From Ginglymostoma cirratum (taxonomy: Eukaryota): a stretch of DNA of 64,000 nt. The translations under genes were made by a program, and so were the position numbers. Shown one piece after another: positions 12,816 through 64,000 of the stretch. The stretch covers positions 19,345,199-19,409,198 of the forward strand of contig JAHRHZ010000009.1 of NCBI GenBank assembly GCA_024137785.1, read 5' to 3'. The stretch's first letter is position 1. Each line of letters opens with the position of its first letter. The notes beneath the pieces are model-generated. The model was not told the origin of the DNA, searched no databases, and saw only the letters and a program-made list of their open reading frames with translations.

Positions 12816-13760
12816 ATGCATTTGTAATGCTAAGGCATACAAGGCTATGAGCCAAGTGCTGGAAAATGGGATTACAATAGATAGGTGGTTGTTTTTGACT
12901 AGTACAGACTCAATGGGCTAAATTACCTTTTCCTGTGCTGTAGACCTCTAAGGCCCTGTATTACAGAACCATGGTAGATTAATGGACCAAACATACAGAT
13001 CAGTAATATACTGAATGGCAGAAAAATCTGAAGGGGATAAATGACCCACTCCAACTCCTATGTTGTTAATTTCCTATGATTGTTGCCCAAACAACAACAC
13101 TTTTCACAATTACAAACCTATGTTTGAACCTGAAAAGATCTTTGCCATCACAATAGAGAATGGTTTATTTTCACCTCCAGATCTCACTTTGGAAGCTAGT
13201 CAAGCAGAAAGCCATAAAAGTCCAAAGCTTGAGCCTAGGTAATGTAGCTCCCAGCTGGTTTGTGGTTGCAGCATAAAAGTAATTGTTCCTAATTTGGGAC
13301 ATATTGACAGTAAATAGGGCCACCCACTCAAATCATAGTGACAGCTACCACTAGAGACGAACGGATTGCCGTGATCAACTTGAAATGCTTTTCAGTTATC
13401 ATGGTCAAAGCGTGCTGTTACATGTTGTCATGCTGTAGTTCTTCCATTCGATAGCATAACGTGTAATGATTGATGACATTATGTGTAAAAAAGGGAAAAT
13501 AATCTACTATTCCACAGCACTGACAAATTTCATGCTTATAAATAAGATGGGTTCCCAAAAGTCACAACTGGTAAAAGCCACCAAATCACAATAATATAAA
13601 AAATAATGAGGCAAGATTCCAAGTTTCATTTTTTTTTCAAACAAAATACATGTGTTTTATTCTCAGGATTCACATTTGAATACTGTACTTTCAATTTTCC
13701 TATAGGTTTCCAAGGAAAATCTCCATTTTTATTATGTTATTGTGTATCATAAATTTGCAA

Positions 13761-13912
13761 AGTCAGAAGTCACACAACACCAGGTCATAGTCCAACAGAT
13801 TTATTTGAAATCACAAGCTTTCAAAGCGCTGCTCCTTCATCAGGGGAATAACAGGTGAACTTGGTGTCGTGTGATGTCAGACTTTGCCAGTTCAACATCA
13901 GCACCTCCACAC
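13761..13912. mobile_element. PLE family B inverted mini-insertion with 13-bp TSD
   Basis: CATAAATTTGCAA at 13748-13760 and 13913-13925. Arms AGTCAGAAGTCACACAACACCA and TGGTGTCGTGTGATGTCAGACT. Right arm has an extra tail ending CACCTCCACAC. Confidence 0.75.
13812..13845 (-). ncRNA. Minimal hammerhead motif, family B
   Basis: Minus strand CCTGATGA-A-GGAGC-AGC-GCTTT-GAAAGCTTG. Stem II has two GU pairs. Stem III is the palindrome AGCT. Confidence 0.6.
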
Positions 13913-14039
13913 CATAAATTTGCAAGACTAGTTGTCAGTTTTCTTTTCTGTATGCTTAATTAATTGGATAGCTCGAGCTCAAATTCTATAAAAACCGGTG
14001 TTGGGTTGGAAAAAGAAAATCATTTCAACATTTTCACAC

Positions 14040-14400
14040 AATAACCTTCCTTTCTAAATCTCTCCGTCTCTCTTTCTCTCCGTCTGCCTTTAAGGCAATC
14101 TGCAAAATCTACAAACATTTAATCATTACTAATTATCTCTCCAATTTGTTCCATGACTACAACCCTCCTCTTGCTTTGCAACCTTCTTCAACCCTTTGGG
14201 CTCTCTGTACTTCTATAATTCTGGCCTCTCGTGCATTCCTGACCTCCATTGCTCTATCTTGCCTTCAGCTGCCAAAGTGCAACTTGGATTTCCTCCTTAA
14301 ACCTGTCTACCTTTCTGCTCTGTCTCTCTTTCGTTAAAACTATTCTTAAAGTGCCTGCCGTCTTCAGCCAACCCAACAAAATGTCTTCATGCGCTTGGAT
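14040..14400 (+). mobile_element. L2 LINE 3' fragments
   Basis: CTAAATCTCTCCGTCTCTC..TTTAAG, CTACAACCCTCC, GCCTTCAGCTGCC, CCTTAAACCT motifs shared with 30300, 37020 and 50600. Confidence 0.55.
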
Positions 14401-15944
14401 GTCATAAAGTTACTATTTGTCATTGTCGATATCCATTTTTATCTGAGTGCTCTTCAGTGAGATGCTTTGAGTTTTTTAATGTTCTTTCTTGGATTTGGCA
14501 ATCATTGGTGATGTCAGTATTTATTGTCTATCCCTAATTGTCCTTAAGGAGATAGTGGTGAGCTGACACTTTCAACCATTTCTGTTTAAGGAACCAAATA
14601 ACTAAAAATTATCATTGTGAAATCAGAACTAACAAGATCTGAGAATTAATGAGACAACATCGAAAGTAACAATAAAACAATTACATTAAGATTTTAAGTT
14701 CCATTATTGCCGTGCAGTCCAATATTACTAATCTTAAAGTTAATTACATGAGACCAAAAATGGAAATCAGATTAGAGTTGACAAGACAAATCAATACCTG
14801 AACTGATACTGCAAGATGTTGAATGTGATAATGTTGACAAGGAAGGAAACCTAAATTCTTGTGTTAATTTTTAAGCTCAGAGGAAAGGAGAAGCAGAACA
14901 TTCAGAGATAGACTGATATTTTATTATGTCATTGCCTATTTTCCTGTTCATAAACTTCAAAACAAAATGGTTAACTGTAGACACTGACCTGTTTTATAAT
15001 GCATCATATTGCTATATGCCTAGCTATTTATTGGGATCAGGGATGTCAGTTTTTGTGAAATACACTACACGACACTGCAGTAATGCAAGTGTGCAGTTGA
15101 TTCATGTTTTACTTGCAGAAGTGAAACATACCAATTGGGCAAGTAGCAAAAATGAAACCTTCATCTTTTTGTTTTCATTTTAATATTAAGAATTTTCAAA
15201 TGAAATCTTTGTCAAACTGTGACATTGAAATGCCATTTGAATTTGATTGCTTAGCACCTCCTTTAAAATAGAAGAGGAAACAATTTCATGTTAGTCTACA
15301 AGCATTAGTATCCCTGTCTCTGAGACAAAAATTCTCAGTTCAAGTCCCATTTCAGGGTATGATGACCAAGGAATGTGCATTCATAACATGGCTAGACCTG
15401 TCAAACCTTTCAACATATGCCAATGTAGAGTGAGAGGGATTCCTGGTTAGCTTGATAGAAAGAAATGGAACCTCTCTCATCACTATCCATATTAAAAATG
15501 TAAATGTAAACATATGTGTTGCCACAGCAACAGCTTTACTGGTTGACCGGATAGATGGCCAATGTAGATCAAACTTGTGCTAACAGCATAGGGTTCAATC
15601 CTTGTTCCACCTTGGTGAATTCTGCGTCCTTCCCCTATTCACGATGCAATGGGTTAAATCTGCCTGAAGGCAGAGAACTTGAGAAGAATACACAGTGTCA
15701 AATGTTGATTTTTCTGCCATATAACATAATTAGGAATAGGGAAATTCTGCAGAACGACTTTCTGTCTGCAAATTTTAATAAATTGAAACTTTCAGCCTGT
15801 GTTGCTTAATATTCTCCAAGATCGGTCATGAATGCAGAATTGGAATATTTTCCCCTTTAACATTTTGCATATGTAATTTCAAGCCCTCAATTTCAAATGA
15901 GTAGAAAGCTTAGACTTTCATATATGCACACTCACGTGTACATA

Positions 15945-16570
15945 CATAAGACTATAAGTCAACAAGATAAAGAAGTGGATGAGGACATTCAGCCCATCAA
16001 ATCTGCTCTGCCATTCGATCATGGCTGATTTGTATCACAACGCTGTTCACATGCCTATTCCCTTCAACATTTGATCCACTTACGAATCAAGAACCTATCT
16101 ATCTCTGTCTTAAATACACTCAATAACTTGGTCATTCAGCCCTCTGTGGCAATGGGTTGCACAGATTCACTACCCTCTGACTGAAGAAATTCCTCCCAAT
16201 TTCATTTCTAAAGGGTCATCCCTTCACTCTGAGGGTGTGCCCTCAGGTCCTAGTTTCTCCTACCAGTGGAAGCATTTCTCCACGTTTACTCTATCCAGGC
16301 CTCTCGTTATTCTGTAAGATGAGATTGATTCAATGAGAAGCCCCCCTGACCCCGACACCCCAGTCATCCTTCCAAACTTCACGAATTGCAGACCCAGAGT
16401 CCTCAACCGCTTCTCGTATGACATACTCTGGGCCCCTTCCAAACTCAACACATCCTTCCTCAGATACAGGGCCCAAAAGTGTGCGCAATATTCCCAATGC
16501 AGTCTGATCAGAGCCTTCTGCAGCCTCAGCATTACATCCCAGCTTTCGTATTCTATAATTCTCTTGCTGA
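15945..16570 (-). mobile_element. CR1 LINE 3' fragment
   Basis: ORF 16260-16589(-): LIRLHWEYCAHFWALYLRKDV..SYEKRLRTLGL..RGLDRV, plus CR1 3' UTR. Confidence 0.85.
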
Positions 16571-16788
16571 GTTCTGCAAACAAAAACAAAATTTATTGCA
16601 GCCCCTGAGTTTAGTTTTCATGATAGCTAGTCCCTGTCAGATGATTAGATTGTATGTCATGGTAATCATAACAGTCATATGTTCTGTGCAGTCATTTATG
16701 GTTTTATTACAAGGAAGCCCCACGTTTGCTGCATTGGTTTTCATGGCAATACATCTGAACATTCACAAACCCAGTCTTAGTTAATCCT

Positions 16789-16990
16789 AGAGATAATAGG
16801 AACTGCAGATGCTGGAGAATCTGAGATAACAAGGTGTAGAGCTGGATGAACACAGCAGGCCAAGCAGCATCAGAGGAACAGGAAAGCTGACGTTTCGGGC
16901 CTAGAAGGGTCTAAACCTCAAACGTCAGCTTTCCTGCTCCTCTGGTGCTGCTTGGCCTGCTGTGTTCATCCAGCTTTACACCTTGCTATC
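16789..16990. mobile_element. PLE family A hairpin mini-insertion with 14-bp TSD
   Basis: TCTTAGTTAATCCT at 16775-16788 and 16989-17002. Roughly 80-bp inverted arms meet inside the hammerhead (GACGTTTCGGGCCTAGAAGGGTCTAAACCTCAAACGTC). Left arm has the extra tail. Confidence 0.85.
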
Positions 16991-17617
16991 TTAGTTAATC
17001 CTGTATGGAGAGCACAAAGTGGTTGCTCAGATGTAACTGGAATCAATGGATGTATGTGCTATTTTAACCTAATTTGAAACCATTCATAAACCACTGATTT
17101 GCACGGAATTAAAATTAGGTGCTACCTTTATTTAACATTTTACCAGATGCGTCATGTCAAATATTCAGACTTCATTTTGTTTTAAGCATCCTGGGATGTG
17201 AAAGGCATCTATAAATTCAAGTTGATATTCTTTACGTCTGATAATTACTGTTATTTTTATCATTCCAGAACATGTAAATATGACATAAATCTCCAAAAAA
17301 ATGTTACAATTATTGTATTGGAACAATCTAATGAACCTCACCATATCTTGTCAATATGTTCAATAGCAAAATTAGATTATTGTCTCCTAAGTTTACCCAG
17401 GAATTTACATATAATTCGGAATTATGTTATTTGAATTTTCAAACGTAGACCTTTCTGAGCAACTTTGGCAAATACCAAAAATTTGGGAAAATTACTGCAG
17501 ATGCTGGAATCAGCTTGAAAATAGAAAATGCTGGAGATCACAGCGAGTCAGCTCTGCTGACTAGAAATGTTAGCTTGCTTTCTCTCCAAGGATGCTGCAT
17601 GACCAAAGGTTTGATGC

Positions 17618-18422
17618 TGTCACGTAACTTTGCATGTTATTCATTCATCCTGAAAAGAATTATAAAACATTGCAGAGCAAAAGGAAACCACTTGGATCGT
17701 GGTGGTCAAATGACCATGGGCCCAAAATTGGACATTCTAAATTGATCCACAGATTGAGAAATCAGACCTGACAGAAAATTGGACAAACTAAACTGACAAC
17801 CAGCCAATAGCTATCAGCTCCAGAGTACAGTGATCAAGATCAAACAGATTACAAAGGTTCAAGAGGAACCAGTTACAACCAGCCCAACAGCTGTAAAATG
17901 AAGAATAGCCAATGAGATGCTCTGGTGTCTTGACAGCCTGAGCATGTGCACATCCCAACATAGCAACAGTGATGGGTGTTGGCATGATCCCATTGGATGC
18001 TTTGATCACAACTCATCACCCCATTGGCTAAATGAAAGGTCTGGTGTGAGGGGGCTAAGAACACACACTTGGACTCTATCCCTCAGTGAAGATGCAGTGA
18101 AGACTTGGAGAAGACTGATGTCAGAAGGCCATACGGTAACCCAAGAAGACCCAGGAGAAGATCCACTCTGACGTGCAAGACCCACATTCATGGAAGAGAA
18201 CCATCCTTATCTTGGAGGGGACAGAGTTTCCAATGGCCTAGCTCAAACACATGGATCATTGTGGGTTATATCCTTTCTCAGACGGATAGAGCCAGATAAA
18301 GAGTAAATATTGTGGAAATTTGGCACATAGTGCTCACATAGTGTTTTAAAAAATAATATTTTGTTCATAAAATTGGTTTGAACCTCAAACTGAACTCTGT
18401 CTCATTGTCTATCTCGCTGACA
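17618..18422 (+). mobile_element. Probable solo LTR
   Basis: Begins TGTCA, ends TGACA. Four CCAAT/ATTGG boxes (17800-18030) and an AT-rich 3' part. No TSD seen. Confidence 0.45.
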
Positions 18423-21357: not shown

Positions 21358-22620
21358 GAAGAGTCCAGATAAAAGATAAGGCTGAAACATTTGTAGCTAT
21401 CTTCAGACAGAAGTGGCAAGTGTATGATCCATCACGGTTCTGCTCCAGTGGTCCCCAGCATCACAGATACAAGTCTTTGGCCAATTTGATTCACTCCATG
21501 TGATATCAAGAGACAGTTGGAGCTATTGGATATTGCAAAGTCTGTTGGGCTTGACAACATTCTGACATTAGTACTGAACACTTGCACTTTAGAACTTGCT
21601 GCTCCCCTAGCCAAGCTTTTCCAGTACAGTTACAACAAAGGCATTTACACAACAATGTAAAAAAATTGCCCAGGTATGTCCAGTACACAAAAGCAGGACA
21701 TATCAAACCCAACCAGTTACTAGCCCATCGATGTCCTCTTGATCATCAGTGAAGTGATGGAAGGTATCATCGACAGTGCTTTCAAGCAACTCTTCAGCAA
21801 TAACTTGCTCAGTGATACCCAGTTTGGTTCCCACCAAAGGTACTGAGCTTGTGACGACATTACAGGTTTGATTCAAACATTGACAAAAGACCTGATTTCC
21901 AGAGGTGAGGTGAAAGTGACAGCCCTTGGCATCAAGACTACATTTGACCAAGTGTGGCACCAAGGAGCCTAAGCAAAACTGGAAACAATGGATATCAAGG
22001 GGCAAATTCTCATTATTTGCAATCTTACTCGGCACACAGCAAGGCAGTTGTGATTTTTGGAGGTCGGTCATCTCAGATCCAGGACATCTCTGCAGGAGTT
22101 CCTTAGAATAGTATCCTAGGCCCAGCTGTCTTCAACTGCTTCATCAACGATCTTCGCTCCATCAGAAGGTCAGAAGTAGGGACGTTTGCCGATGATTGCA
22201 CAATATTCAGCACCATTGGCGACTCCTCAGACACTGAAGCAGTCCATGTTCAAATGCAACAAAATCAGGACAATATCCAAGCTTGGGCTGACAAGTGGCA
22301 AGTAACATTTGCACCACACTATACCAATCAGTGACCATCTCCAATAAGAAATGGTTTAACCTCTGCCCCTTGACATTCAACAGTGATACATCACTGAATG
22401 CCCTACTATCAATATCCGAGGTGTTACCACTGATCAGCCACTCAACTGGACTCACCACAGAAATACAGTAGCTATAACATCAGATTGGGAGCAAGGAATC
22501 CTGTGGCGAGTAACTCACCTTCTGACTCCCCAAAGCTTTTCTAAGGTTTTGGAGTAGATCTGTAGCTCGGGTTGTGGGTGTTGAGGTTGGTTGGCTCGCC
22601 GAGCTGGTTTGTTGTTCCGC

Positions 22621-22660
22621 AACTGTTTCATTACCGTGTTTGGGAACATCCTCAGTGCAG
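22621..22660 (-). ncRNA. Decayed hammerhead motif, family C (left arm)
   Basis: Minus strand CTGAGGA-TGTTCCC-AAACAC-GGTAAT-GAAAC-AGT. Cleavage triplet region mutated. Confidence 0.45.
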
Positions 22661-23391
22661 CCTCTGATGAAGTGTCGGTCTGTTTTCTCGCCTGGTTTTT
22701 AAACTCTGGGGTCCGTTGCGATGGCATGAGTCACTTCCGGGTTTCCTCTGTAGTGGAATGTATATGGGGCCGAGTTCAATGTGTTTATTAATAACATGCT
22801 TCATGGAGTGCCATGCTTCCAGGAATTCTCATGCTTATCTCTGCCCAGCCTGTCCTAGGATCTTGGCGTTGCCCCAGTTGAAGTCGTGGTTCTCCTTGTC
22901 CATGTGGATTGAGATGAGTGAGTATTGGTTGTGTCTTTTTGTAGCCAGCTGGTGTTCATGTATTCTTGTTGTTAGTTTCCTTCATGTTTGTCCGATGTAG
23001 TGTTTCTCCAATGTCATCTACAAGATCCCCTGCAGAGACTGCGAGAAACACTACATTGGACAAACATGAAGGAAACTAACAACAAGAATACATGAACACC
23101 AGCTGGCTACAAAAAGAAACGACCAATACTCACTCATCTCAATCCACAGGGACAAGGAGAACCATGACTTCCACTGGGACAAAACCAAGATCCTGGGACA
23201 GGCTGGGCAGAGACAAGCACGAGAATTCCTGGAAGCAGGGCACTCCATGAAGCATGCTATTAATAAACACATTGATCTCAACCCCATATACATTCCACTA
23301 CGGAGGAAACCCGGAAGTGAGTCAATCCATCGCAACAGACCCCAGTGTTTAAAAACCAGGCAGGAAAACACACTGACGCTTCATCAGAGGC

Positions 23392-23432
23392 TGCACTGAG
23401 GATGTTACCAAGCACGGTAATGAAACACCTGC
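23392..23432 (+). ncRNA. Decayed hammerhead motif, family C (right arm)
   Basis: CTGAGGA 23396-23402, stem II GTTACC-AAGCAC-GGTAAT, GAAAC 23422-23426, then ACC in place of GTC. Confidence 0.5.
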
Positions 23433-23883
23433 GGAAAAACAAACCAGCTCGGTGAGCCAACCAACCTCAATCCCCAAAGCTTGATTAATGAAATCAGGAG
23501 TGTGATGGAATACTCCCTACGTGCCTGAATAGGTGCAGCCCCAAAGCTCAGGAAGCTTGACACCATCTGGGACAAAGCAGGCTGCTTGATTCGCACGACA
23601 TCCACAAGTATACACACCCTCTGCCATTGACATTCAGTAGCAGCATGGTGTACAATTTACAAGATGCCCTGCAGAAATTCACCAAAGATCCTTAGACAGC
23701 AGGTTGTAAGCCCACAACCACTTCCTTCGAGAAGAATAAAGTCAGTAGATTCATGGAAATAACACCACCCGCAAGTTCCCCTCCAAGCCACTCACCAAAA
23801 TATATCACCATTCCATCACTGTCGCTGGGTCAAAATCCTGGAATTCCCTTCCGAAGGGCATTGTGTGTCAAACTACAAAATAT

Positions 23884-24195: not shown

Positions 24196-24339
24196 TAAAT
24201 TTCTAAAAAAATTTCTTCTAATGGATTTCAGTGGTTCAATAAGGCAACTCACCACCACATTCTCAAAGGCAACTAGGGATGGGCAATTAAAAATTCTGGC
24301 CATTCCAAGAAGTCCATGTCTTATGACTGATTTAAAAAA

Positions 24340-26562: not shown

Positions 26563-26744
26563 AAATAACTTTACAATAACAAAAATCTAGTATATTGCGG
26601 TATAGCTTTCCCATTTCCAAATGTTGATTTGAATATGACACCAGGTCTAGGGGCTCTCCAGATATATAATAGCCCCATGTCAGCAAGCAGTGTGAGTAGC
26701 AGCATTGAAGGATAATCATCAAAAGCAAAATAGGAAATAAATTA

Positions 26745-27305
26745 AGATAAAACATTGTGGAGCTGGATGAACACAGCNNNNNNNNNNNNNNNNNNNNNNN
26801 NNNNNNNNNNNNNNNNNNNNNNNNNNNNNNNNNNNNNNNNNNNNNNNNNNNNNNNNNNNNNNNNNNNNNNNNNNNNNNNNNNNNNNNNNNNNNNNNNNNN
26901 NNNNNNNNNNNNNNNNNNNNNNNNNNNNNNNNNNNNNNNNNNNNNNNNNNNNNNNNNNNNNNNNNNNNNNNNNNNNNNNNNNNNNNNNNNNNNNNNNNNN
27001 NNNNNNNNNNNNNNNNNNNNNNNNNNNNNNNNNNNNNNNNNNNNNNNNNNNNNNNNNNNNNNNNNNNNNNNNNNNNNNNNNNNNNNNNNNNNNNNNNNNN
27101 NNNNNNNNNNNNNNNNNNNNNNNNNNNNNNNNNNNNNNNNNNNNNNNNNNNNNNNNNNNNNNNNNNNNNNNNNNNNNTGACGTTTTGGGTCGAGACCCTA
27201 AACGTCAACTTTCCTGCTCCTCTGATGCTGCTTGGCCTGCTGTGTTCATCCAGCTCCACAATGTTTTATCTCAGATTCTCCAGCATTGGCAGTTCCTACT
27301 ATCTC
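26745..27305. mobile_element. PLE family A hairpin mini-insertion with 15-bp TSD, spanning an assembly gap
   Basis: TAGGAAATAAATTAA at 26731-26745 and 27306-27320. AGATAAAACATTGTGGAGCTGGATGAACACAGC is the exact reverse complement of the right arm. Confidence 0.85.
26778..27177. other. Assembly gap (400 N)
   Basis: Run of 400 N. Confidence 0.99.
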
Positions 27306-29324
27306 TAGGAAATAAATTAAACTGTTTACCTTTCACTTTTTGCAAATTTAACAGGAGGTGATCTAGAGTTTGGGGTACACACGTTAGAAACGGAAATATC
27401 ATACACATACTTAAAGAATGATAATCCCTAATATGTTACAAACAATAGAGCTGCTTTTCTGAAAGAGCTCCACATTTCTGGTAGGTGATTCTGATCAAAG
27501 TTCCTTCACTAATGCCAGCGTAATATAAATCTAACAGTTCTGACCATCAGAAAGATGTTCAGGGGAAATCAAATCACATGCCTTTTATCATGGTAGCAGC
27601 TAATTAATCTGTGGTTCAAATGTGCAGCAGCATATATAGCCATTTTGACAGCTCCTGTGAAAGAATCGGTAGGTAAGTATAAGGTTAGGATGTCAGGTGA
27701 GAACAGTTTCAAGATGCCGTGTCGGTAAGTCCCAAAGTCCCAAATGGATAAGATGACAGCAAATAGGGTGCCAGGTGGATAGGGTGCAAGGGCACAGAGG
27801 CAGGAGGTCGGGTGCCAGCTGAGTGATGGAGTGTTTAAGGTAGGTCGGGACAGGGGTTGTATATGGTTTCATGGAGAAGGAGGTGCCACGTCCAGCAAGG
27901 GTCTAGGGTGATAGTCATGTCCAGTAATAGATTTCTAGATAGAAAGAGACTGTCAGGTCCTATGGGCAAGAGATAGATGAAAAGTCCCAGGAGGCACCGA
28001 ATTGCTTGGTCTTGGAGGAAGTGGGTAACAGATCCTGGGATCAAAGGGAATGTCAGGTCCCTGGGGGGGACAAGATGGCATCAGGTTCTGGGATGGGGGT
28101 GAGGTCCGATGGGTCAGGGTGGGAGAGATGGAGGTGGGAACTAGTAAGGAGTCTCCTGAAAGTGTAGTTAGGAGTGTGTGTGGCAATTAGCAGTGGAGGA
28201 GAAAGTGTGTGCTATGAGTTTAATAGCTGTCAGAAGATAGACTGTGTATTTAATTGTTTAATGTTTCCTCGTTAACTATTAATAACCGCAGCAGAACACT
28301 CCAGGATTCCAATGTGCAGGGGAATTCCCCTTTTGGAATCTTCTATATCGTGGGTAATTCCCTCAGAATCTTGACACGCATCTCCCAGCTATGCTGCAGA
28401 AATAACTGGCCATTGGAAAATCTGGGTCTGTGGAACTTTAAATCAAATTAAAAGATAAAAGCACTCCACAAATATCAAATAAATTTTTCAGATCCAGGTT
28501 TTTAGCAATAATTATAAACATTATGTGCCATTAAATTCCTTACACCTGTTTGCATGGTGTAGAAATTCCAAAGTACACTGTATTTTATAGCAGTTTAAAT
28601 CATCGCATAAAGCAGAATTTTCATCAGTTCAGTGATTTCTGATTGAAATCAATTTGAGATGACTGCAACAACATGCCTTCTGGGGAAACTTGGAATCACC
28701 AACAGCAGCTTCGAGGATTTCTCTGTTTAACTGTGCATTTGTGAACGCCAAAAGTTGCAGTCAGTTTGAGAGGAATAATCACAGCTTTGATGCGACAAAA
28801 TACCAAACATGTTCAAGGGTTTTTTTGCATAAGACTAATCAATTCCGTTAAGATGTACAATTGAATCAAAATTTGGTTTAGATTTGTAGTCTGATGTCGG
28901 GTATGCTCACTGAGTGAACTAATGATGCTTGACAAAGTGCCATAAAAAATAATAAAACATAATATTCAAAGTCGCTCAGAAACTAATTCAGTACATGTTA
29001 TACATGCATATTGGTTTAATTGGTGTTTAAAATTTTGAATTTTTCTTTTTCACTATTAAACACTTTTTAATCTTTGGTTCAGCTTTGAGAGAATTACTTC
29101 CCTGAAATATCATGTCATTTGTACAAGTTTTCAGGGCAATATAGCTTAAAGTACCAGTCACACAGAAAGCATGGTAATTGCTTTACACCTCTGATTTTAG
29201 GCTGGAAGGTGGTCATTTTATGAAAACCTTTTTGTTTAATATTTTTAATTTTGTTCAGTATCAACAAAACAACAACTGAAGCATTTTACAAAAGAGGCAA
29301 ATGAAAGAATATCTTTTGTTTTCG

Positions 29325-30570: not shown

Positions 30571-32271
30571 AAGTGTTAAAAGGTCCCCATGCAGAAGTGA
30601 AAGTTCTTCTTGATGGAAGCCGAGCAAGAAAATGCCGTAAATTATTCAGTATTTATGACGCTTCCTTTTATTTTACAGGGAATGGATGTGCCTAAAAGTT
30701 GAATACGTTTTAAAGGACAGATGAGTCTGTTTACCATTCTAATCTATGTTAGACAGCAGTAGAGCAAACTCTAATATGCCTTAAGGTCAACTAATGGTAC
30801 AAAAGCAAAGATTTTCACGATTTTGTGCATAACCATTGTTTTGAGCTGTAACCCATTTAGCCATCAAGAAGAATCATGAGTCTATGTATCTGAAATAAAT
30901 TGGCTTTTATGATATGCCATTACTCATGAGTGCTCCGATAAAATTCATTAGTACCGTTTTGATGAAACAGGCTAATATCAGAAGGCTATAAGATCTGTGA
31001 ACATTGATGCAGAACACCGTCAGTGTATATAGATTGTAAAAGAGCACGTCATGTGCAATGATTGTTTATTGCCTCAGACTAAAATTTACTTTCAATCTAT
31101 CATGATACTTGTTTTGAGAATCTTAAGATATTAGGCTTCTGAGGTAGGTTGAAACATGTTTGGATACTGTGGCTGAGAAAATTCTAACACTGTTATCATC
31201 ATTTTCCTGCCTTTTTAAGAGCACTGAAGAAAGTCCATTAGATATCTCCAGAGTGTGAACTTCTGATGGCATCCCACAGGGTGAAAAGTTAACACTTCAG
31301 TGACATACAGCCATCTCAGTGAGCTAATCAGTCAGAAACAGCCTATACATGCATTAGATTAGAGACAAAACTCAGAGGCTCAGTTACCCCTCGTCCTGCA
31401 AACATCAGAGTTGGCAGATCAACAATAAGCAATATATGTGATTTGCACACTAAATGGGCTTTGTAGCTTTCAGATAACTGGCTTGTGGCTTAACTGTGCA
31501 TCACTGCACCTGGCACATTGCACAATGAATGCTTTTTGTTGCCTGAAGGTCATTTTTCTTCCCATCATTTCTTCTTTATCCATTATGTTTATAAGTTTAA
31601 TCACAGTGGGGACAATGGGAGTATTGGAATAGTCAGATAATAATGCACTTAGAAGGCTGTCAGTGTGTTGTCAAGTGAAGGAAGACAAAATGCAGACTGA
31701 TCAACAGAAAAGAATTGAGTAACCTAGTATTGTGGCTAATATTAGAATGTGGCACTTCTTAAAAATCTTCGCAGAAGGTACTTTTCAATGCAACGACATG
31801 CAAAGTGTTTCCTGCGAAGGCAGCAAAAATGCCAACAAGAGGCAATTACTTAAAAAGAGATGCATAATGTGAAGAAGAAAGAAAGCAGTCTAGGAGACCT
31901 GATAGACAATAAATTGAGGCTATCGCTATGAAACTTCATGGCAGTAGGTAAATCAAATCAGATAGCAGAATGCTATCAATATGTCAATAGCAAGCCAAAA
32001 TCATGAGTCAGTCATGGCACTTGATAAAACACGAGTACAATAACAAAAGCTTGTATGCATGGTTTGGGAAGTTTAATCAGATAGAAAACTTGACAATCTA
32101 CCAAAAAATGATATTTGCATCAGTGACTAAATATTGGTTGATGACGTTGATCTTTAAGATGTATACTAAAGGAAGAGAGATTGGTGGAGAGGTTTAGGGA
32201 CGGAATTCTAATTCTGGGGTAAAAGAATTTGGGGATACTCAAGAGACCAGAATTGTAGAGTCTCTAATTCA

Positions 32272-33205
32272 AGGAATGTGGAGCTGGAAAAGCTCAACAG
32301 GTTAGATAGCATCTGAGGAGCAGGTAACTCAATGTTTCGGGTCAGAACCCTTCTCCAGAACCGGGGAGCGTGAGAAAAGCCCAGAAATAAATAGAGGGAG
32401 GGGAATGGGGCTGGGGGGAAGGTAGGTGAGATGGGGATAGGTGGATGTAGTTAGGGAGTTATTGTGGTTGGTCAGCGGGAAGGGTGGAGTGGGTACGTGA
32501 ATGGGAAGATGGACATGTTGTGGGTAGAGAGATTTTGAAGCTGGTAGGGGGTTTTGTGGTTGGTCAGTGGGAAGAGTGGAGAGGATAGATGAGTCAGAAG
32601 ATGAATAGGGTGGGGAGAGGAGAGATTTTAAAGCTGGTGACGTCAATATTCGGACCATTGGGCAGTAAGCTCCCAAGGCAAAATATCAGGTGTTGTTCCT
32701 CCAGTTTGCATTTGGCCTCACTCTGACAGTGGAGCAAGCCAAGGATGGACATGTCACCAGAGGAATAGGAGGGGAAGTTAAATTGGCTGGCAACTGGAAG
32801 GTCAGGCTGGTTGGTGCATCCAGAGTGCAGATGCTCTGCAAACTTGAACCCGAGTCTGCGTTTGGTCTCCCCGATATAGAGGATATCACATCCAGAGCAA
32901 TAAATACAGTAGATGAGGTTAGATGAAGTGCAGGTGAATGTCTGCCAGATTTAGAAGGATTGTTTGGGGCCTTGGGCAAAAGTGAGAGGGGAGGTGTAGG
33001 GGCAGGTGCAGCACTTTGTGCAGTTGCAGGGAAAGGTGTGGTGGAGAAATTGGTGGGGAGTGCGGACCTGAAGAGAGAGTCGCAGAGTGAACAGCCCCTG
33101 CAGAAAGCAGGCAGGGGTGGGGAGGGAAATATCTTTTTGGTGGGGTCTGACTGCAGGTAGGAGAAATGTCAGAGGATGATGCGTTGTATTCGGAGGTTGG
33201 TAGGG
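32272..33205 (-). mobile_element. Penelope-like element 3' part (GIY-YIG plus decayed hammerhead)
   Basis: Minus strand FPCNCTKCCTCPYTS and NLIYCIYCSGCDILYIGETK (about 32860-32920). CTGGAGAAGGGTTCTGACCCGAAACATT at 32331-32358. Confidence 0.85.
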
Positions 33206-34877: not shown

Positions 34878-35119
34878 GAGACAGAAAGGACTGCAGATGC
34901 TGGAAGCTAGAGTCAAAAAATGTGGAGCTGGAAATGCACAGCAGATCAGGCAGCATCCGAGGAGCAGGAAAGTCAATGTTTCAGGTCAGAACCCATCTCC
35001 AGGTCTGGGAAGGGTGAGGGAAGCCCAGAAATAAATAGAGGGAAGAAGTGGGGCTGTGGGAAGCGTAGGAGAGATGGCGATCGATGGATACAAGTAGGGG
35101 CTGTTGTGGTTGGTCAGTG
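34878..35119 (-). mobile_element. PLE family A-related 3' end
   Basis: GGACTGCAGATGCTGGA..GGCAGCATCCGAGGAGCAGGAAAGTCAATGTTTCAGGTCAGAACCC.TCTCCAG, then AGAAATAAATAGAGGG. Confidence 0.75.
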
Positions 35120-35246
35120 AAGTGATTTCACCCGATGAAGAAGCAGCACTCTGAAAGCTGGTGATTTCGAATAAGTCTGGAGAACTGTAACCTGATGACT
35201 GCAGACTTTGTCCACCCAAGTCCATCACCGGCACCTCCACATCATG
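35120..35246 (+). mobile_element. PLE family B 3' end with decayed hammerhead
   Basis: CCGATGAAGAAGCAGCACTCTGAAAGCTG...GACTTTGTCCACCCAAGTCCATCACCGGCACCTCCACATCAT, homologous to 13761-13912. Confidence 0.7.
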
Positions 35247-37420: not shown

Positions 37421-37961
37421 TTGGTGGTTGGACAATCAATATCCTGTTATTTATTGGAGAAGTACAGAGGGTGTATGCTTCTGGGGAGTCTCATGTGAAA
37501 ATCACGAATTCCGTTGTTAAGGATGACCATCAACAGAAAAGATTAACATTCCAGTGACTTGTCTTCTTGTATCTCCACTGCTAATGCAGGCACTGAAACT
37601 ACAGAGGTGTTGGATGAAAATGAAATAGATCTAATTGATTTTTCATTGCATTTTAATAGCTCATTAGCAAACAGACTCACTGTCTGCTTCTGCATTCCCT
37701 TCGCTGAAAGACCGTTGGCAGTAATTCCACCCAATTTATTTCTGGTGGATACAACCACAGCATATATCCTGCTTACAATGATAGCTTGTAAGAGTTTGTA
37801 ATGTAAGAACTCTAGCAAATTTGTCAAACATAATTTGCCTTTAACAAAACCACGTAGACTGTTTACATTAAACTTTTCTAAATGTCCTACCATTTTCTTT
37901 AAATAATGAAGTATAGCATTTTCCCAATGACAGATGTTAAACTAACAGACCTATAGCTTTC

Positions 37962-38520
37962 AGAGATAAAAGGTACTGCAGATGCTGGAGAATCCGAGAT
38001 AACAAGCATGGGGCTGGATGAACACAGCAGGTCAAGCAGCATCATAGGAGCAGGAAAACTTGACGTTTNNNNNNNNNNNNNNNNNNNNNNNNNNNNNNNN
38101 NNNNNNNNNNNNNNNNNNNNNNNNNNNNNNNNNNNNNNNNNNNNNNNNNNNNNNNNNNNNNNNNNNNNNNNNNNNNNNNNNNNNNNNNNNNNNNNNNNNN
38201 NNNNNNNNNNNNNNNNNNNNNNNNNNNNNNNNNNNNNNNNNNNNNNNNNNNNNNNNNNNNNNNNNNNNNNNNNNNNNNNNNNNNNNNNNNNNNNNNNNNN
38301 NNNNNNNNNNNNNNNNNNNNNNNNNNNNNNNNNNNNNNNNNNNNNNNNNNNNNNNNNNNNNNNNNNNNNNNNNNNNNNNNNNNNNNNNNNNNNNNNNNNN
38401 NNNNNNNNNNNNNNNNNNNNNNNNNNNNNNNNNNNNNNNNNNNNNNNNNNNNNNNNNNNNNNNNNNNNAAACGTCAAGTTTTCCTGCTCCTATGATGCTG
38501 CTTGACCTGCTGTGTTCATC
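37962..38520. mobile_element. Young PLE family A inverted insertion with 16-bp TSD, spanning an assembly gap
   Basis: CAGACCTATAGCTTTC at 37946-37961 and 38521-38536. Arms are exact reverse complements and both run into the gap at the hammerhead AAACGTC. Confidence 0.88.
38069..38468. other. Assembly gap (400 N)
   Basis: Run of 400 N. Confidence 0.99.
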
Positions 38521-40754
38521 CAGACCTATAGCTTTCTACTTTTTGTCTCCCTCCTTTCATGAACAGAGGCATCATATTAGCATTTTTTGAGTCCATTCGA
38601 ATGCCCCAGGAATGCAGTGCCTATTTCAACCAATACATTTACTATTTCCACAGTTACTTCCTTTAAAACCTATGGATGCGAGCTATAAATCCTGGTGGAC
38701 TTTCTGCTATTAGTTTGTCCCATTAGTTTGTCAAAAATGTTGCCCCTTGTGATAGAAACTGTTACAAGACCTTTCCTCCCATTAGTACCTTATTATCTGA
38801 TATCGTTGGGATGTTTATAGTGTCCTGAGCTGGAAAGACTGATGTGAAATAATGGTTTAGATTATCTGCCATTTACTAATTCCCTGTTATCAATTCTCCA
38901 ATTGCATTCTCCAAGGGTTCCATACACACTTTAGCCACTTCCTTTGTTTTAATATATAGAAGCTCTTGTTGTATTCTTTCCCAACTTATTTTTATAATAA
39001 TTTTTTTCCCTTTTTCCTAACTTTTTAGTCACCTTTTTGACATGGATTTATTTTATGCATTATGGAATAGCTACTTAAATGACTGCCACTGCCCATCTAC
39101 TGACTTTCTTCTTAGTCTATTTTCCCAACCTATTCTAGACAACATTGTATTTTTATACCTCTGTAATTGCTCATATTTAAGTTCAGATGTGAGCTGCACT
39201 GTCTCAAACAGAATTTAAAATTCTGCCATGTCTTGATTGCTATCCCCAAGACGATGCTCAACTGTAAGATCTCTTATTAATCATACATGATTATATAATA
39301 TAAAATATAAAACAACCTGTTGATACATAGGTTATACAACACATTGTTCCAAGAAACAATTCCTGATGCAGTCTACAAATCTGTCTTCCATGTTACTGTT
39401 GGCCATTTGATTTATCCAGTCAATATGCAAATTAAAATAATGCGTGACACAATACATGCCTCCATTATTTCCTGATTTATACTTTGCTCTACAGAGATGT
39501 GAATCGTTGGAGTCTATAGACAACTCCCACCCATGCCCTCTTTCCCTTGTTATTCCCTATTTCCACCCAAACTTATTCCATGTCACAATCCATTCCACCC
39601 ACATAACTACTCACCACACTGATACTTTCCTTTTTTAACAGCAGTACTATACCTCCTTTGCAGTTTTGGCTATTTTTCCAGAAGGTCAACGCCGTTAACT
39701 ATTGACTTTCCAGTTTTGGACACATTGTGTCCACGTCTCTGTAATTGCCATCGAGAAATATTCATTTAATTCTATTCATGCCATTACTCCTTTATAATTT
39801 TACAAATGCAGCATGCAGTCAAATAAAGATCCTTAAGCTCAGGCATTCTAATTGGTTCTAATTTCTGCTGCACTCTTTTATTATCTGTTTTGTTCTTCCT
39901 GTGAGACTTTGATTATTGTTTGCCTCTTCACTCCTCAATATCTCTCCTCCCTTGTTTCTTTTTGATTTGACTTTCAGATTCCCTTCAATTGAACTGTCCC
40001 CACCATTAATTAGTTTAAAGCCTTATCTAAAGTCCAGTTTTCTGATTCACCTGGACAATGAATCAACAACTCTCTTCAGTACTGGTACTAATGCCCAATG
40101 AATCAAAACAAATTTCTCCCGCTCAATCTTTGAGCATTTGATCATTTGTCTCTTTGAACATTTATCTCTCTAATCTTATTTAAACTATGCCGACTTGCAT
40201 GTGGTTCAAGTAGTAATAATGACAGCATTACCTTTGTTCTGCTTTTTGATTTAACACCAAGGTCCATGCATGGCAATAACTTCCAGAACCAAAAGTCAAT
40301 GCTACGATCTATGTCAGCAAGCTCCACGCAGAGCGACTGTGCATGTGCGCAGCTTAGAGAGGACATTGTGTATAATTCCTCAACAGAGCCACTTTCCTAG
40401 TCTGACCAATATTTTTGACATCCATGTGTACCATAACAACTGGAACCATCCTCTCCAAATCCAAGTTCCTTTCTAGCTCAGAGAGAGAGGAGAGAGGTCC
40501 TTAACCTTCACACCACATAGGAAACTATGCTGCAGAGAACATTATCTAATCTCCTGACTATTCTAACCCCTACTACAGCTACAATTCTCTTTTCCACCCT
40601 CATTTAAATGGTGTTCTGTGCCATGGTGCTTTGGTTAGTCCACTCAACATCCATGCAATCTGTGACATTATCCACATTTGGAGCAAGAAGTTCAAACCTA
40701 TTTGGAAATAGGGATGACTCAGGGTCTTCAAAAGCTAAACCCTGGATCCCAACC

Positions 40755-40957
40755 AAAGATAGTAAGAACTGCCGATGCTGGAGTCAGAGATAACACAGTG
40801 TGGAGCTGGAGGAACACAGCAGGCCAGGCAGCATCAGAGGAGCAGGAAAGTTGATGTTTCGGGTCAGGAGAATGCTGCTGACCCGAAACATCAACTTTTT
40901 CCTGCTCCTCAGACGCTGCCTGGCCTGCTGTGTTTCTCCAGCTCCACACTGTGTTAT
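40755..40957. mobile_element. PLE family A-variant hairpin mini-insertion with at least 11-bp TSD
   Basis: CCTGGATCCCA at 40741-40751 and 40958-40968. Arms meet at GATGTTTCGGGTCAG-GAGAATGCTG-CTGACCCGAAACATC. Confidence 0.85.
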
Positions 40958-42109
40958 CCTGGATCCCAGTACCTGCTTCACTCCCAGTCACTCTCTCCTC
41001 TCCCTGATCATGGATCCCTCCTGTCACTGTAGCACTTCACATGCAGGCTCATTCTTCACAGTCTGCTTCACTGTGATACTGATTGCTGCACACTCCTGAT
41101 AGTATGATCTACAAATGCCCTCATCACTGTCATCATTCCCTCAGTGACTGGGTACAACGAAGCACATTTTCATACTTGACTTTCCTACTTTCCCTGGGAC
41201 TCTATTGACTTCACTCTGTTAGGCCCCTTTGTAATTATTAACCAAATTTTCAGAATTGACTGCGCCTCATACCCTCGACTGACTTGATAGGAGTCAACGA
41301 GCCATGAAATGGCTGTTTGCATGTCTGCACAAAAATGTCCTTTATCGATTTATAAATGTGTGGCAGCCTGTGCACACAAAACAATGTGGCAAAAACATGC
41401 ACAGATGAGATATCCACCAACTTCAAACTAAAGGGCTGAATGCCCAAAGTGGTGGCTTAATTATCTGAAAGCAGTTATTACAATATGGTGAGGCTAATGG
41501 CTTATCAATGCCAAGGCGTATGGCTGACGGGTCAAGGAGGTCGGTGGCATGTGGAGACTTTGTTCAGAAGAAGCAGTTGGATGATAACCACGATAGGCAT
41601 TCAGTGAGCTGCAGTCAACACGTGTCCATTCTGTTTTACCTGTTTGGTTTTGCGCTGTTTAGTTCCTTGCTGGAAGGGAGAACTGGAAGGGTGGTGCAAA
41701 ATGGAAATGTTGGGGTGCTAATGATGTGCAATTACATGGAAATAAGTTAGTCATCACTCAAGAGCAGGATTCTGAAATCACTATTCATAACTTGAAGGGA
41801 AAATAGTGTGAGTTCTCTCAACATTGAGAATTTGATTTTTTTCCTATTCTTGTCCTATTTATTCACCTTATTTGCCATTACTCTAGACACACCGCTGGGG
41901 GAAAATTCCGCCATAAACTCTGTACCTGACAGGTTTCTGATATTTATGCAGAGATGAATTGAAAAAGAATTTCACTTCTAATTGGAGTCAATGATAATAA
42001 CTTATCAATCTAAATTGAAGAGAAAATTTTGGCAAAATTACTTTGAACAGAGAGATTATGAGTCAGTATTGTGCCATGTAAAGCAGTTAAGGCTGAATCC
42101 TTCGTATAT

Positions 42110-42470: not shown

Positions 42471-43819
42471 GGCAGCCCGCTCAAATGACGAGAAGTGTTT
42501 TGATATTATTTCCTTTATAAAGTGATTGTTTATTAATGCCATCTGAGTAGGATCATTTGAAAAAGAATGCTCACGAGAAACAAAAACTAGTTTTAGATCA
42601 CGTTGGATTTAAAATATTTGTTTTTTTAATTCCTTGTCTGAAAGTCAAAGATGCCATGAGAGACGTGAAAATTGAATGTGTTGTTTAAATGAGAGGATGG
42701 CAATATCGTTTGGACACATCTTTCATCACCAGCAAGTTATACTCATTTGTCATATTCAATACTGACCTATATCTGCAGAAATTAGCACAGCAGTCCATGG
42801 CTTGCTACATGATCACATCTTTTTCCTGTGTTCACTGTCTCGAAGGAATTCTCTATTTGTTCAGCAACTGCATACAGTTTGAACAAATTTCATAAACCTA
42901 GTCCTTGACTTGTTTGGCAACTGCTTTCTCAACAGATATGGCTGAGTGGAAAGAATAAATCTAATCTTTAAATGATGAAGTACATGTAGGTCATGTTGCA
43001 AATACTGAAGAGAGAATCTTGGCAATCCAAGATAAATAGCTTACTGCTATAGTAAAGTTACTTTTCCTTAGTAATTCTTATTCTGATTATTTTACATTTG
43101 CAATAATTTTTGCCTTTTGAAAGATTTTAGATTTGGAAGTCATCAGTTTCCTTTACTTCATTTTAAATCAGTCAAAATTACAGCTTTTTAAAATGTCACT
43201 TATGTTGCCTGTATTTGAATTGTGATCGTCTGAATTTTAATAAAACCTAACAGGGGAAAAGAAAATGTTTTAACTGGCATCGCTATTCCCACAGGATTGA
43301 AAAAGTTATGTGATAATATTTTCAGAAAGAAACCATTTGAGGCACTGGTCTGGATGTAATTCTAAAGATAGTGTTGAGTTGCTAAAAGATGAGCTTTACA
43401 TATCAGCTATGTAGGTCAAGAGAATTGGGATGCTTCATCTTTGAAGAAGCAATCTGCTTATGCAGCACTTTTTAATTGTGCTTTCTTTCCTTGCTTTCTC
43501 ATTGCAGTAAAGTGGAAAATTAATAACTTTGGTGATATAGAACTATATTATGTAGAGCTTTATACATCTTTTAAATTGGAGGTATTCGGTTTGATCATGT
43601 GGCAAAATTATAGCTTAACTTACAAAATCATAAATAATGAGTCCATTTGCCTTGAAATTTCACTCTATGAATATTAATGCCAATGTCCTGTTTTGTCCTA
43701 TTTTATTGAGTGGGTTATTCTCAATGGATTGAACGGCATCATAACAGTGGACAGAGGAATTTCGGAGGAAGGCGTTCAGTATTTTTACATGAAGGACATT
43801 ACAGGATCTTTTATCATGA

Positions 43820-43997
43820 GAGAAAAAAAACAGAAATTGCTATAAAATCCTAGCAGGTCTGGCAGCACCTGTGGAGAGAAGTCAGAGCTATGTTTCAGGT
43901 CCAGTAACCCTGAAGAAGTCCTGAAGAAGGGTTACTGAGATTTTCCAGCAACTTTTGTTATTGTTTCAGTTTTCCAGCATCTGCAGTTCTTTCATTT
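43820..43997. mobile_element. Older PLE hairpin mini-insertion
   Basis: Inverted arms around CAGTAACCC..CTGAAGAAGGGTTACTG, with tail TTCCAGCATCTGCAGTTCT. Confidence 0.65.
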
Positions 43998-44264
43998 TTT
44001 TTGTCCTTTATAATGTGGTTTGATGCCACAATTATGAGTTTGGCTTCAAGGGGAGGGCAAAATTAATTGTCTTCAGGCTCAGACTTAAAACTAATGCTAC
44101 TTATTAAACATTAGGCATGCATATACTAAGCTCTGGGAAATCCTCATGAGGGAAGACCCAATGTATCTTTTTCTTGTGCTTATGTCTATGTATTTTTTCA
44201 ATCTTTCTATATCAGATAATTCTAACACCATCCAAACTATGCTATTTATGCTCAGAGATGTTAA

Positions 44265-53800: not shown

Positions 53801-53864
53801 ATACTTGAGGAGTCCAGGTTACTATGGCAACATTCAAATGTACACGCATGCTGTAGTCTGGATC

Positions 53865-58157: not shown

Positions 58158-58336
58158 AGAGATAAAAGGTACTGCAGATGCTGGAGAATCCGAGATAACA
58201 AGGTGTAGGGCTGGATGATCACAGCAGGTCAAGCAGCATCATAGGAGCAGGAAAACTTGACGTTTCGGGCCTAAACCCTTCATCAGAAATGGGGGAGGGG
58301 AAGAGGGTTCTGAAATAAATAGGGAGAGAGGGGGAG
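58158..58336 (-). mobile_element. Young PLE family A 3' end with tail
   Basis: Near-identical reverse complement of 84-220 plus the tail AGAGATAAAAGGTACTGCAGATGCTGGAGAATCCG. Confidence 0.85.
58255..58290 (-). ncRNA. Minimal hammerhead ribozyme motif, intact core
   Basis: Minus strand ATTTCTGATGAAGGGTTTAGGCCCGAAACGTCAAGT, identical to 124-159. Confidence 0.75.
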
Positions 58337-61690: not shown

Positions 61691-62656
61691 CCTATAATAA
61701 CAGCAGCAGCCACCCCTACCTTCACCAGTCTTGCTGGTAATGGAGAGCCGCCAGCCTCCTTGATTTGCAGCAGTTTTCCGTGGTGGGCCTGACCAGGGCC
61801 TAGATCAAGTGGTAAACACAATGCTATCCATTACCTGCATGATTGCTTTAGAGCAGTATTCACCCTTCGACTTATTTGTGATCAAAGCAGTAAGCAAACA
61901 TGAACAGCAAAATCATACAAAAGGGAAATCCCCCCATTCTGATTTACTCAATGCAAATGAGGTAAAAGCCAGAGATCACTGTTTTAAAGTTTGTGCCTTC
62001 CATTCATGTTCAAAATTTTTTTTTTACAGGATTAATTTAACTGATTGCGATCATTGTAAATCAGTGCCCAAGTATAATTCTTTTCTCCAGCACTGGTTTC
62101 ATGTTTGAGGGTAACATTTTGCTTCAAATCTGTCTGGACGTCTTGAATGAGGAAATGGCAAAACTATCATAATCTTTTCTTTAAACAGAAGCCATTGCCT
62201 CATGAATTATGGGTGAGCCTTCCAAAACTTCTTTTTCCCTCTGTATTTTTATTTGCTCTCTGAATTCATTCAATGTGAAAGCCTGAATGCCAATGATGCA
62301 ACTATGGAACTGTTTGCCATGGGAATGAGACATCAGCATTGCTGTAAATTAAATGGCAAGAAGACTGAATTATTCTGGATGACTGCTTGGCTAATAATTT
62401 TTTTTCCTGAAAATGTCTGCCTGATCATTACTTCACCTAATGCCTTCAGTGATTTCATCACATCTTATTGGTTGAAGTATACATGTTGAACAGGACTCTG
62501 GGGATAACTTCCTGTTTTTATTCAATCTCGTGCCATCAGATTATTTTAACCATGTGAAAGAACAAACCAAGTCTGAAAGACAATATCTCTAGTAGTGCAA
62601 CAGACTGAGTGCCAGCACTGATTGTATGTTCAAGTCTTGGAAGTGGGCCTTAAAGT

Positions 62657-62855
62657 CATCGAGTCGTAGAGTTGTGCAGCACAGAAACAGACCTTTCGGT
62701 CCAATTCATCCATGCTGACCAGATATCCTAAATTAATCTAGTCCCATTTTCAAGCATTTGGCCCATGTCTCTTGAAAGACTTCCTATTTGTGTCTCCAAA
62801 CAGATGCCTTTTAAATGTTGTAATTGTACCAACCTCCACTACCTCCTCTGGCAGA
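62657..62855 (-). mobile_element. CR1 (HER1-like) 3' end
   Basis: GAGTCGTAGAG.TGTGCAGCACAGAAACAGACCTTTCGGTCCAA.TC.TCCATGCTGACC, reverse complement of 6760-6943. Confidence 0.8.
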
Positions 62856-63760
62856 TGAGTCTTAAAAACAAACACTTAGCTGATCAATGGAAAACTGACA
62901 TTCCCAGCTATGAGTAGCTCCAAAAATGAGGTATCTCCAAGGTCATCTATGAAATTTCACTGTCTGCTTGTTTTTTCTTGGGATGAACTCTGATTTCCAG
63001 AGATGTTTATACTTTCACAGACGGTCAGTGGTGAAAGTTCACAGTTAGTTTTGTTTTAGATGAACTCTAGAGCCATTCTCAGACTTCCCGTACGGTCTCT
63101 CCCGAAATTCCTGCTCTCTCTCTTTCCTTCTATTTGGAATATGGTTTTTTAATTTGTTTTAAAGTTCCAAAAACAGAGCAAAATCTTATAAAAAAACAGT
63201 AATTACTGCTCCAAGAAACCTAGAAAATCACCTCCAGCACTGGGGAAAAAAGGAGCAGCTCTTACATCCACAGTTCTCTCCTATCCATAATTTTGGAAGG
63301 TCTTTGGGTGGAATTTTTTTTTCTTGAAATGAAGAGTGGTGTAGTACAAAAGTGAGGGGTTGTGGACACAGGTTGTCCTGAGCAGTTATGTTCTCAATGT
63401 AAATACATTCAATGGTAAAACACTCATTTTTGTGACCAGCAAGTTCTGAAGCCCATCTGTACGTCCCAGGCTTAAACATCAGGACAGCATTTCACCTCTG
63501 CAACCCAGTGGCATCACTCAATTTCAGCTCATCATCCCCACTCACACGTGGACGTGTCAGCGATTAGACAAAAGCAGCACAACACTTTCGTGATGCATCA
63601 GTAGAGGTTCTCCTGAAGGCTGTCCAGGAAGGAAAGCAAGTTCTTTTTTGTGTGGGTGACAACAAGGAACCATCTTGTTTCCTGACAAAGAAGCATGGAC
63701 ACAAGTAACTGGTGAGGTCAGTGCTTACGGGTGGCTTAACAGAACATGGTATAAAGACTG

Positions 63761-63909
63761 AGATAACAAGGTGTAGAGCTTTCTGAAGAAGGGTCCAGAC
63801 CCGAAACGTCAGCTTTCCTGCTCCTCTGATGCTGCCTGGCCTGCTGTGTTCATCCAGCTCTACACCTTGTTATCTCAAATTCTCCAGCATCAGCAGTTCC
63901 TACTATCTC
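63761..63909. mobile_element. About 150-bp PLE family A mini-insertion with 15-bp TSD
   Basis: TGGTATAAAGACTGA at 63747-63761 and 63910-63924. A 20-bp inverted stub AGATAACAAGGTGTAGAGCT precedes a full plus arm with tail. Confidence 0.88.
63781..63812 (+). ncRNA. Minimal hammerhead motif, intact core
   Basis: CTGAAGA 63783-63789, A, stem II GGGT-CCAG-ACCC, GAAAC 63803-63807, GTC. Stem I is weak (about 2 bp). Confidence 0.65.
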
Positions 63910-64000
63910 TGGTATAAAGACTGACTTTTTACTGATCTGTATCTTTAATATTGGGTTGAAATTGTGATTGAAGAAAAAAATGGTATTAAAGACATTGGTT

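Follow-up and report, generated by a model that had tools for sequence, protein, structure and literature searches.

Tailed and tail-less inverted 3′ ends form short hairpin copies of Penelope-like elements in Ginglymostoma cirratum

Seven short hairpins in a 64,000-nucleotide stretch of the Ginglymostoma cirratum genome (contig JAHRHZ010000009.1, positions 19,345,199 to 19,409,198; hereafter the window, numbered from its first letter) are real, shortened copies of Penelope-like elements (PLEs). Each is built of two copies of an element's 3′ end set head-to-head, a long arm that carries a terminal tail and a short arm that lacks it. All are bounded by direct repeats, from which target-site duplications (TSDs) are inferred. 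The copies fall into three families, A, B and C, and each is named below by a position near its left end.

Repeat-bounded hairpins and their two end positions

The seven units are as follows, with the strand on which each arm reads in the sense direction and with lengths in base pairs (bp) or nucleotides (nt):
13748..13925, family B hairpin 13761: TSD of 13 bp (13748-60/13913-25); short arm 13761-13849 (sense on −), filler of about 8 nt, long arm 13858-13912 (sense on +), tail 13888-13912
16775..17002, family A hairpin 16789: TSD of 14 bp (16775-88/16989-17002); long arm 16789-16903 (sense on −) with a 35-nt tail, short arm 16904-16991 (+), the apex lying within stem II of the hammerhead
22527..23482, family C hairpin 22539: TSD of 12 bp (22527-38/23471-82); long arm 22539-~23010 (sense on −) with a 42-nt tail, short arm ~23012-23470 (+), apex in the open reading frame (ORF)
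26731..27320, family A hairpin 26745: TSD of 15 bp (26731-45/27306-20); short arm 26745-26777, then a 400-N gap inside the unit, apex at ~27187-27198, long arm to 27306 (+) with a 34-nt tail
37946..38536, family A hairpin 37962: TSD of 16 bp (37946-61/38521-36); long arm 37962-38068 (sense on −), a 400-N gap inside the unit, short arm 38469-38523 (+) ending about 17 nt short of the usual site, apex hidden
40741..40968, family A hairpin 40755: TSD of 11 bp (40741-51/40958-68); long arm 40752-40870 (sense on −), filler of about 7 nt, short arm 40878-40958 (+), the apex lying within stem II of the hammerhead
63747..63924, family A hairpin 63761: TSD of 15 bp (63747-61/63910-24); 23-nt short arm 63759-63781 (sense on −), long arm 63781-63910 (+) from the 5′ edge of the hammerhead

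The direct repeats are exact at all seven insertions (13, 14, 12, 15, 16, 11 and 15 bp in the order above), and 60-nt windows paired at random shared at least 11 letters in 6 of 5000 trials. When the window was scanned blind, 21 inverted pairs up to about 1.5 kb apart came up; a flanking repeat scoring at least 11 was found only at the seven (null for such a score, 5/293), and none of the 21 was a symmetric hairpin. In every one of the seven, the flanking repeat adjoins one arm and stands 25-42 nt off the other. Tailed and tail-less arms thus meet head-to-head in 7/7 repeat-bounded hairpins, and in 9/9 once two older ones found by eye (listed below) are added. If the two ends were chosen independently at near-even odds, long-with-short pairing in all seven would have p ~0.007-0.008, for a sample of seven (or nine) hairpins from one 64-kb window. 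An inverted truncated copy, a TSD and a one-sided tail of 30-40 bp are general for endonuclease-positive (EN+) PLEs, as excerpts of the published accounts have it (PMC3846280, PMC8557442, PMC2377424), and an inverted 5′-truncated copy with one-sided tail and TSD was found 7/7 here. In the five gap-free hairpins the arms are 83-92% alike or carry private changes. The best match of an arm is its own partner in three of the five family A pairs, is tied in one and comes second in one, the close match expected of a single event.

Position 0 for the arm ends is here the putative ribozyme cut, taken as the final base of the hammerhead's GUC-type triplet. Five of six family A short ends (220, 16789, 26745, 40755 and 63761; 220 is a single junction whose partner lies beyond the window) stop at TATC(T), +64 to +67, and the long ends stop at +98 to +101. 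The tail measures 32-37 nt in family A and 42 nt in family C. For family B it is 25-26 nt in 13761, where 6 nt are missing, and 31-34 nt in the copy at 35118-35241; a relative's loose-end consensus at 13758 likewise carries the longer tail. Both family A ends (for example 16789-16830) stand at a TATCTC-like motif that is repeated 35 nt apart, and this repeat may mark two start sites; families B and C lack a comparably clear repeat of the end motif.

These results largely agree with an earlier note on this DNA, made from its letters alone. Its seven inverted 3′ ends with TSDs of 11-16 bp and its common family A stop, counted with 220, stand as described, and its tail lengths hold for families A and C; the figure of about 30 nt for family B fits the copy at 35118 but not 13761. 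The note had named TSDs at chance frequency as a ground for rejection, and the counts above (7/7 vs 6/5000) are far from that. Hairpin 26745 is about 190 bp long, not 560 bp, its apex being visible to the right of the 400-N gap. Both assembly gaps of the window (26778-27177 and 38069-38468) lie within hairpins, 26745 and 37962.

All six visible apexes differ, as do all eight when the two older hairpins are included. In 5/6 visible apexes (7/8 with the two extras) at least one arm stops 5′ of the cut, between −33 and −14, a span that falls in stems I-II of the hammerhead; this clustering is uncontrolled, in that long palindromes may be lost or unassembled. The arm that reaches further 5′ is the tail-less one in three of six (13761, 16789 and 22539) and the tailed one in 63761, two being ambiguous. 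The apex of 26745 is a clean junction within stem II, and filler bases are seen at 13761 and 40755.

Element identity and other copies in the window

The ORFs that tie the hairpins to PLEs, and the remaining copies, lie at these positions:
1..220, + strand: family A short tail-less 3′ end, hammerhead core intact at 128-152; remainder outside the window
221..1690, − strand: decayed Penelope-like ORF with reverse transcriptase (RT) and GIY-YIG frames; left end approximate by the junction, right end by eye
17474..17613: extra older hairpin, tailed on the left, shorter right arm from hammerhead stem II; decayed 12-bp TSD (10/12)
32270..33200, − strand: older A-type copy, tail-less 3′ end joined to the GIY-YIG frame 32594-32950; no TSD found
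35118..35241, + strand: long arm of family B whose tail lacks the deletion, facing an older long arm of A type (34878-35117) head-to-head; no TSD found
43807..44017: extra older hairpin, short arm left and tailed arm right, hammerhead apex with short filler; decayed 14-bp TSD (11/14)
58158..58336, − strand: family A solo long arm, tailed, with intact core at 58262-58286; no inverted partner and no TSD found

The 3′ end at 1-220 aligns with the end of element 32270-33200 (121/170 nt alike; score 119, shuffles ≤54), which in turn matches the decayed element at 221-1690 (278/403 nt, 69%). The GIY-YIG frame of 32270-33200 gives PF01541 at E=0.03, below the cut-off, and an Atlas score of 0.95 to a cluster with the family on 42% of its members. 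In the decayed element, relatives of the RT frame (1025-1384) stand at 64-73% and carry PF00078/PF26215 (six of 411 candidate proteins). [quoted passage not shown] Both family C arms carry a hammerhead-like motif and the 3′ end of a GIY-YIG-like frame (PF01541 E=0.0067, below the curated cut-off; unnamed clusters came first in the Atlas), and the hairpin holds no RT. By endonuclease motifs, family A may be Neptune-like and family C Poseidon-like. Pfam gave no match for five of the seven frames tested, and the family C endonuclease and family A RT frames have no match among solved structures.

A putative minimal type I hammerhead-like motif is present in the pseudo-long terminal repeat (pLTR) of all three families. 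The core CTGATGA-stem II-GAAAC is intact twice (128-152 and 58262-58286), against 0.52 matches expected, which is weak taken alone; in families B and C variant putative motifs were read by eye against the descriptor of PMC4209133. Rfam returned no hammerhead and nothing at gathering score, the hairpins giving only sub-threshold matches of microRNA type, and a clean hammerhead fold was recovered neither as a minimum-free-energy structure nor by co-folding. A pattern scan for more copies gave none in metagenome contigs and, in viral contigs, one chance match in unrelated DNA.

The extra hairpins at 43807-44017 and 17474-17613 were found by eye and missed by the blind scan. The head-to-head tailed arms of A and B type at 34878-35241 are either nested insertions or a mixed-family event. 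Copies 1-220, 37962-38523 and 58158-58336 are young and near-identical (72/72 and 138/143 alike). The 9-mer after the junction at 220 is found again at 58335-58343, where the 58158 copy breaks on its 5′ side; this is probably chance. An older solo tailed arm (~7899-8021) within 7899-8030 has an 8-bp flanking repeat, and an older inverted pair at 5587-5805 was dropped as a further hairpin because it has no TSD. A 1.6-kb stretch at 55150-56790 has a 10-bp direct repeat at its ends (9/10) and inverted arms of 75-99 nt lying 17-22 nt inside. Self-comparison shows no relation to families A-C, and the stretch may be a DNA transposon in decay or some other retroelement unit.

Contigs of a diverged relative

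Contigs from four runs of a relative, organism A, were compared over 13300-23020, a span that holds three of the seven hairpins, that of family C by one arm only; run X13 contributed a single read. Organism A is about 5% diverged (110 differing letters in one 2205-nt contig), and its runs hold 0.12-0.17 of the words of 13300-22400. The 13761 hairpin, with apex, tail and right TSD, lies in one contig (13815-16007; X1, X2), and both 16789 junctions are also present in contigs (X1, X2). Their presence in organism A indicates that 13761 and 16789 are old genomic insertions, not artefacts. One X8 contig breaks off at 16783 inside the TSD, with 27 letters unmatched; this could reflect an indel or an empty allele, and the contig is left uncounted.

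Among the best 18 of 13440 loose-end positions, contigs pile up at 16789, the family A long end (732, 748 and 575 contigs in X1, X2 and X8), and at 16823, the family A short end (597 in X2 and 520 in X8). The loose letters at both piles are A/T-rich and agree poorly, as expected of unique flanks. Organism A contigs also leave the 16789 hairpin at 16899 (399-530) and 16903 (308-471), running on into ordinary upstream element. Apex-like joints (16877 to 16945/6) recur among the best 15 of 2751 joints, at depths of 49-322 in 1-3 contigs (single-copy depth ~8-20), with sides of just 20-27 nt that flag them as unreliable. Opposite-strand, tail-to-tail joints of the long end 16789 with a short end at 16822 or 16827 occur in 23+11, 29+10 and 3+0 contigs at single-copy depth; these could stem from hairpins duplicated in tandem, from another way of resolving the double nick or from one compound repeat.

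Origin of the hairpins and relation to known elements

We hold it fairly probable that the hairpins arise by paired priming from a staggered double nick, followed by early stalling and end joining. The element enzyme would nick both target strands 11-16 bp apart, and the RNA would offer two fixed start sites, 32-42 nt from each other, of which each nick would use a different one to prime synthesis, the two serving as a pair within one event. Synthesis would often stall in the hammerhead, and the two short copies would be joined head-to-head by end-joining repair, leaving a heavily 5′-truncated insertion that is presumably a dead-end product. Such joining is indicated by the filler bases of 13761 and 40755. 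Since both arms copy one RNA stretch, the scheme would require either that the template be present in two copies or that the first cDNA be displaced; two pLTRs of a tandem transcript, or two RNAs on a dimer, could supply the template copies. Short ends overlap the TSD by 3, 1, 3, 1, 3, 3 and 0 nt (sum 14), a value reached by 16-107 of 400000 simulations, in a test that takes TSDs at maximum extension with one hand-set anchor (13761) and is weakened accordingly. The overlap suggests brief pairing of primer and template.

Parts of this scheme have direct precedent. In vitro work of 2024 on PAc, the Poseidon element of Anolis carolinensis, showed in its excerpted sections that both strands are cut and extended, and that reverse transcription starts at two internal RNA sites, the tail being the sequence between them (PMC11167929). 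The long end lies 85-92 nt past the ribozyme cut in PAc (+26; +111-118; PMC11167929), as compared with about 100 nt in family A, 81 nt in the family B copy at 35118 and 83 nt in family C. The template of PAc was uncleaved RNA, and 5/6 hairpins here likewise reach 5′ of the cut site. The programmed twin priming proposed in the earlier note fits in its two fixed sites and both-strand priming, which had already been demonstrated in vitro for PAc. The systems also differ: PAc showed no strand preference of the sites and no target-RNA homology, whereas the present ends are paired and their short ends overlap the target by 1-3 nt; and the excerpted text contains no description of paired site use giving hairpins (PMC11167929).

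Several findings pull the other way. With PAc in vitro, no difference in start site was seen between top and bottom strand, which offers no ground for strict pairing (PMC11167929). The fixed site is not reached by one of seven short arms (37962) and one extra (17488), which end upstream of it; some arms stand alone, with neither partner nor TSD (58158, 34878 and 32270); and family B is represented in the window by 3′ ends only, with no link to an ORF. In organism A, 16823 is absent from the six positions listed for X1, its pile may include subfamilies that diverge in the tail, and there is no pile for the family B long end or the family C ends among the 18 positions listed. Nor was an empty site, by which the earlier note had hoped to confirm the insertions in a relative, seen in organism A contigs over 13300-23020.

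Folding-back is the closest competitor in print. A single cDNA, or an antisense RNA as suggested for rotifer Penelopes, would fold on a palindrome and be copied, the endonuclease then trimming the product to a one-sided tail; published accounts propose self-priming at palindromes (PMC3846280) and ascribe the tail to 'EN-mediated resolution' (PMC8557442). The near-identity of partner arms would follow, as would apex ends within hammerhead stems I-II, a natural palindrome, in 5/6, with the clean stem II junction of 26745. We nevertheless regard it as unlikely. Simple cDNA fold-back fails, as no tail can arise when a tail-less strand is copied. With the loop on the tail-less arm in 3/6 and on the tailed arm in 1/6, neither fold-back nor a strand-fixed trim covers all units. 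Two apexes hold fillers, the family C apex lies in the ORF, and in vitro both ends are RT start sites on sense RNA, according to the PAc excerpts (PMC11167929). The pairing of ends could instead be set by the template, one nick priming on the internal pLTR of a tandem transcript, which is followed by the tail (the ORF start), and the other on its terminal tail-less pLTR. The tail is the part in which the pLTR continues into the ORF (PMC3846280), partial tandems are the norm (PMC8557442), two template copies are needed for arms that copy the same stretch, and tail-less copies exist in the window (220 and 32270). This is nonetheless improbable in our estimate: in PAc, both sites are used although the RNA contains only one pLTR-ORF junction (PMC11167929), and no full tandem source element (pLTR-ORF-pLTR) is present whole in the window.

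The earlier note had also raised a self-propagating, non-autonomous class resembling MITEs (miniature inverted-repeat transposable elements), which would be copied from master hairpins and for which we see little prospect. Non-autonomous PLE derivatives do exist (PMC8557442 and bioRxiv 10.64898/2026.07.22.740005, both in excerpt), and the high-depth recurring joints of organism A could be multi-copy hairpins. Against such a class, no apex recurs among the six visible and organism A holds 2751 different joints, with a few low-copy, unreliable ones recurring among the best 15; organism A copies run on past the 16789 apex (16899 and 16903); and partner arms match one another better than other loci. 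DNA-transposon MITEs share the short inverted form within a TSD; that identity was rejected, since in the hairpins one arm is set back 25-42 nt from the repeat and TSD length ranges from 11 to 16 bp, whereas MITEs are symmetric and uniform in size with a fixed-length TSD. Least credible of all is an assembly artefact at repeats. A 400-N gap interrupts two of the seven, whose arms are identical to either side of it; five are gap-free, all seven have exact TSDs, and the 13761 apex and both 16789 junctions recur in independent contigs of an organism about 5% diverged.

Among described PLE products, the insertion units of EN+ elements share inverted 3′ ends, a single tail, a TSD, a palindrome at the junction, a hammerhead in the pLTR and trouble in short-read assembly, as far as the excerpted accounts go. 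Relative to those units, the present halves are just 23-480 nt, a bare hairpin, with apexes that cluster in the hammerhead, and their TSDs are 11-16 bp, vs 8-10 bp in rotifer PLEs. Remnants in Schistosoma, in which minimal hammerheads lie on opposite strands 100-700 bp apart, cover a similar size range; the excerpt gives them a single-sentence mention with no TSD or tail analysis (PMC4209133). Non-LTR retrozymes, too, are short, non-coding, PLE-derived and hammerhead-bearing, and per the excerpt are direct tandem repeats, whereas the present units are inverted pairs (bioRxiv 10.64898/2026.07.22.740005). Self-comparison revealed no tandem array of these ends, and retrozyme identity was rejected. 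In LINE-1 twin priming, both nicks of a staggered cut prime cDNA, and a head-to-head inversion results inside the TSD. There the second site is variable and the pieces do not overlap, whereas the hairpins have fixed sites and the same RNA stretch in both arms.

The architecture and most of the proposed mechanism are already in print, and the hairpins are probably not a new element class. What the window adds is the long-with-short pairing in 7/7, the loop on either arm, the hammerhead apexes and the target overlap of 1-3 nt. In the literature consulted, neither paired use of the two start sites nor a description from sharks was found; Arkhipova 2006, Evgen'ev and Arkhipova 2005 and Pyatkov 2002/2004 may contain a model of this kind. 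We put forward only tentatively a stricter version of paired priming, in which an asymmetric dimer would use an obligate pair of sites, one per strand, with 1-3 nt of pairing and with the hammerhead as the main cDNA stop, such that hairpins of 150-250 bp would record full integration in at least three unrelated families.

Hairpins of this kind leave gaps in assemblies and may be mistaken for MITEs or microRNA hairpins. They bear on how PLE integration is completed and on how inverted copies with a one-sided tail come about, beyond the in vitro work on PAc. Abundant minimal hairpins are the simplest products that can be counted, and their end pairing, loop arm, apex and target overlap could separate paired priming from fold-back.

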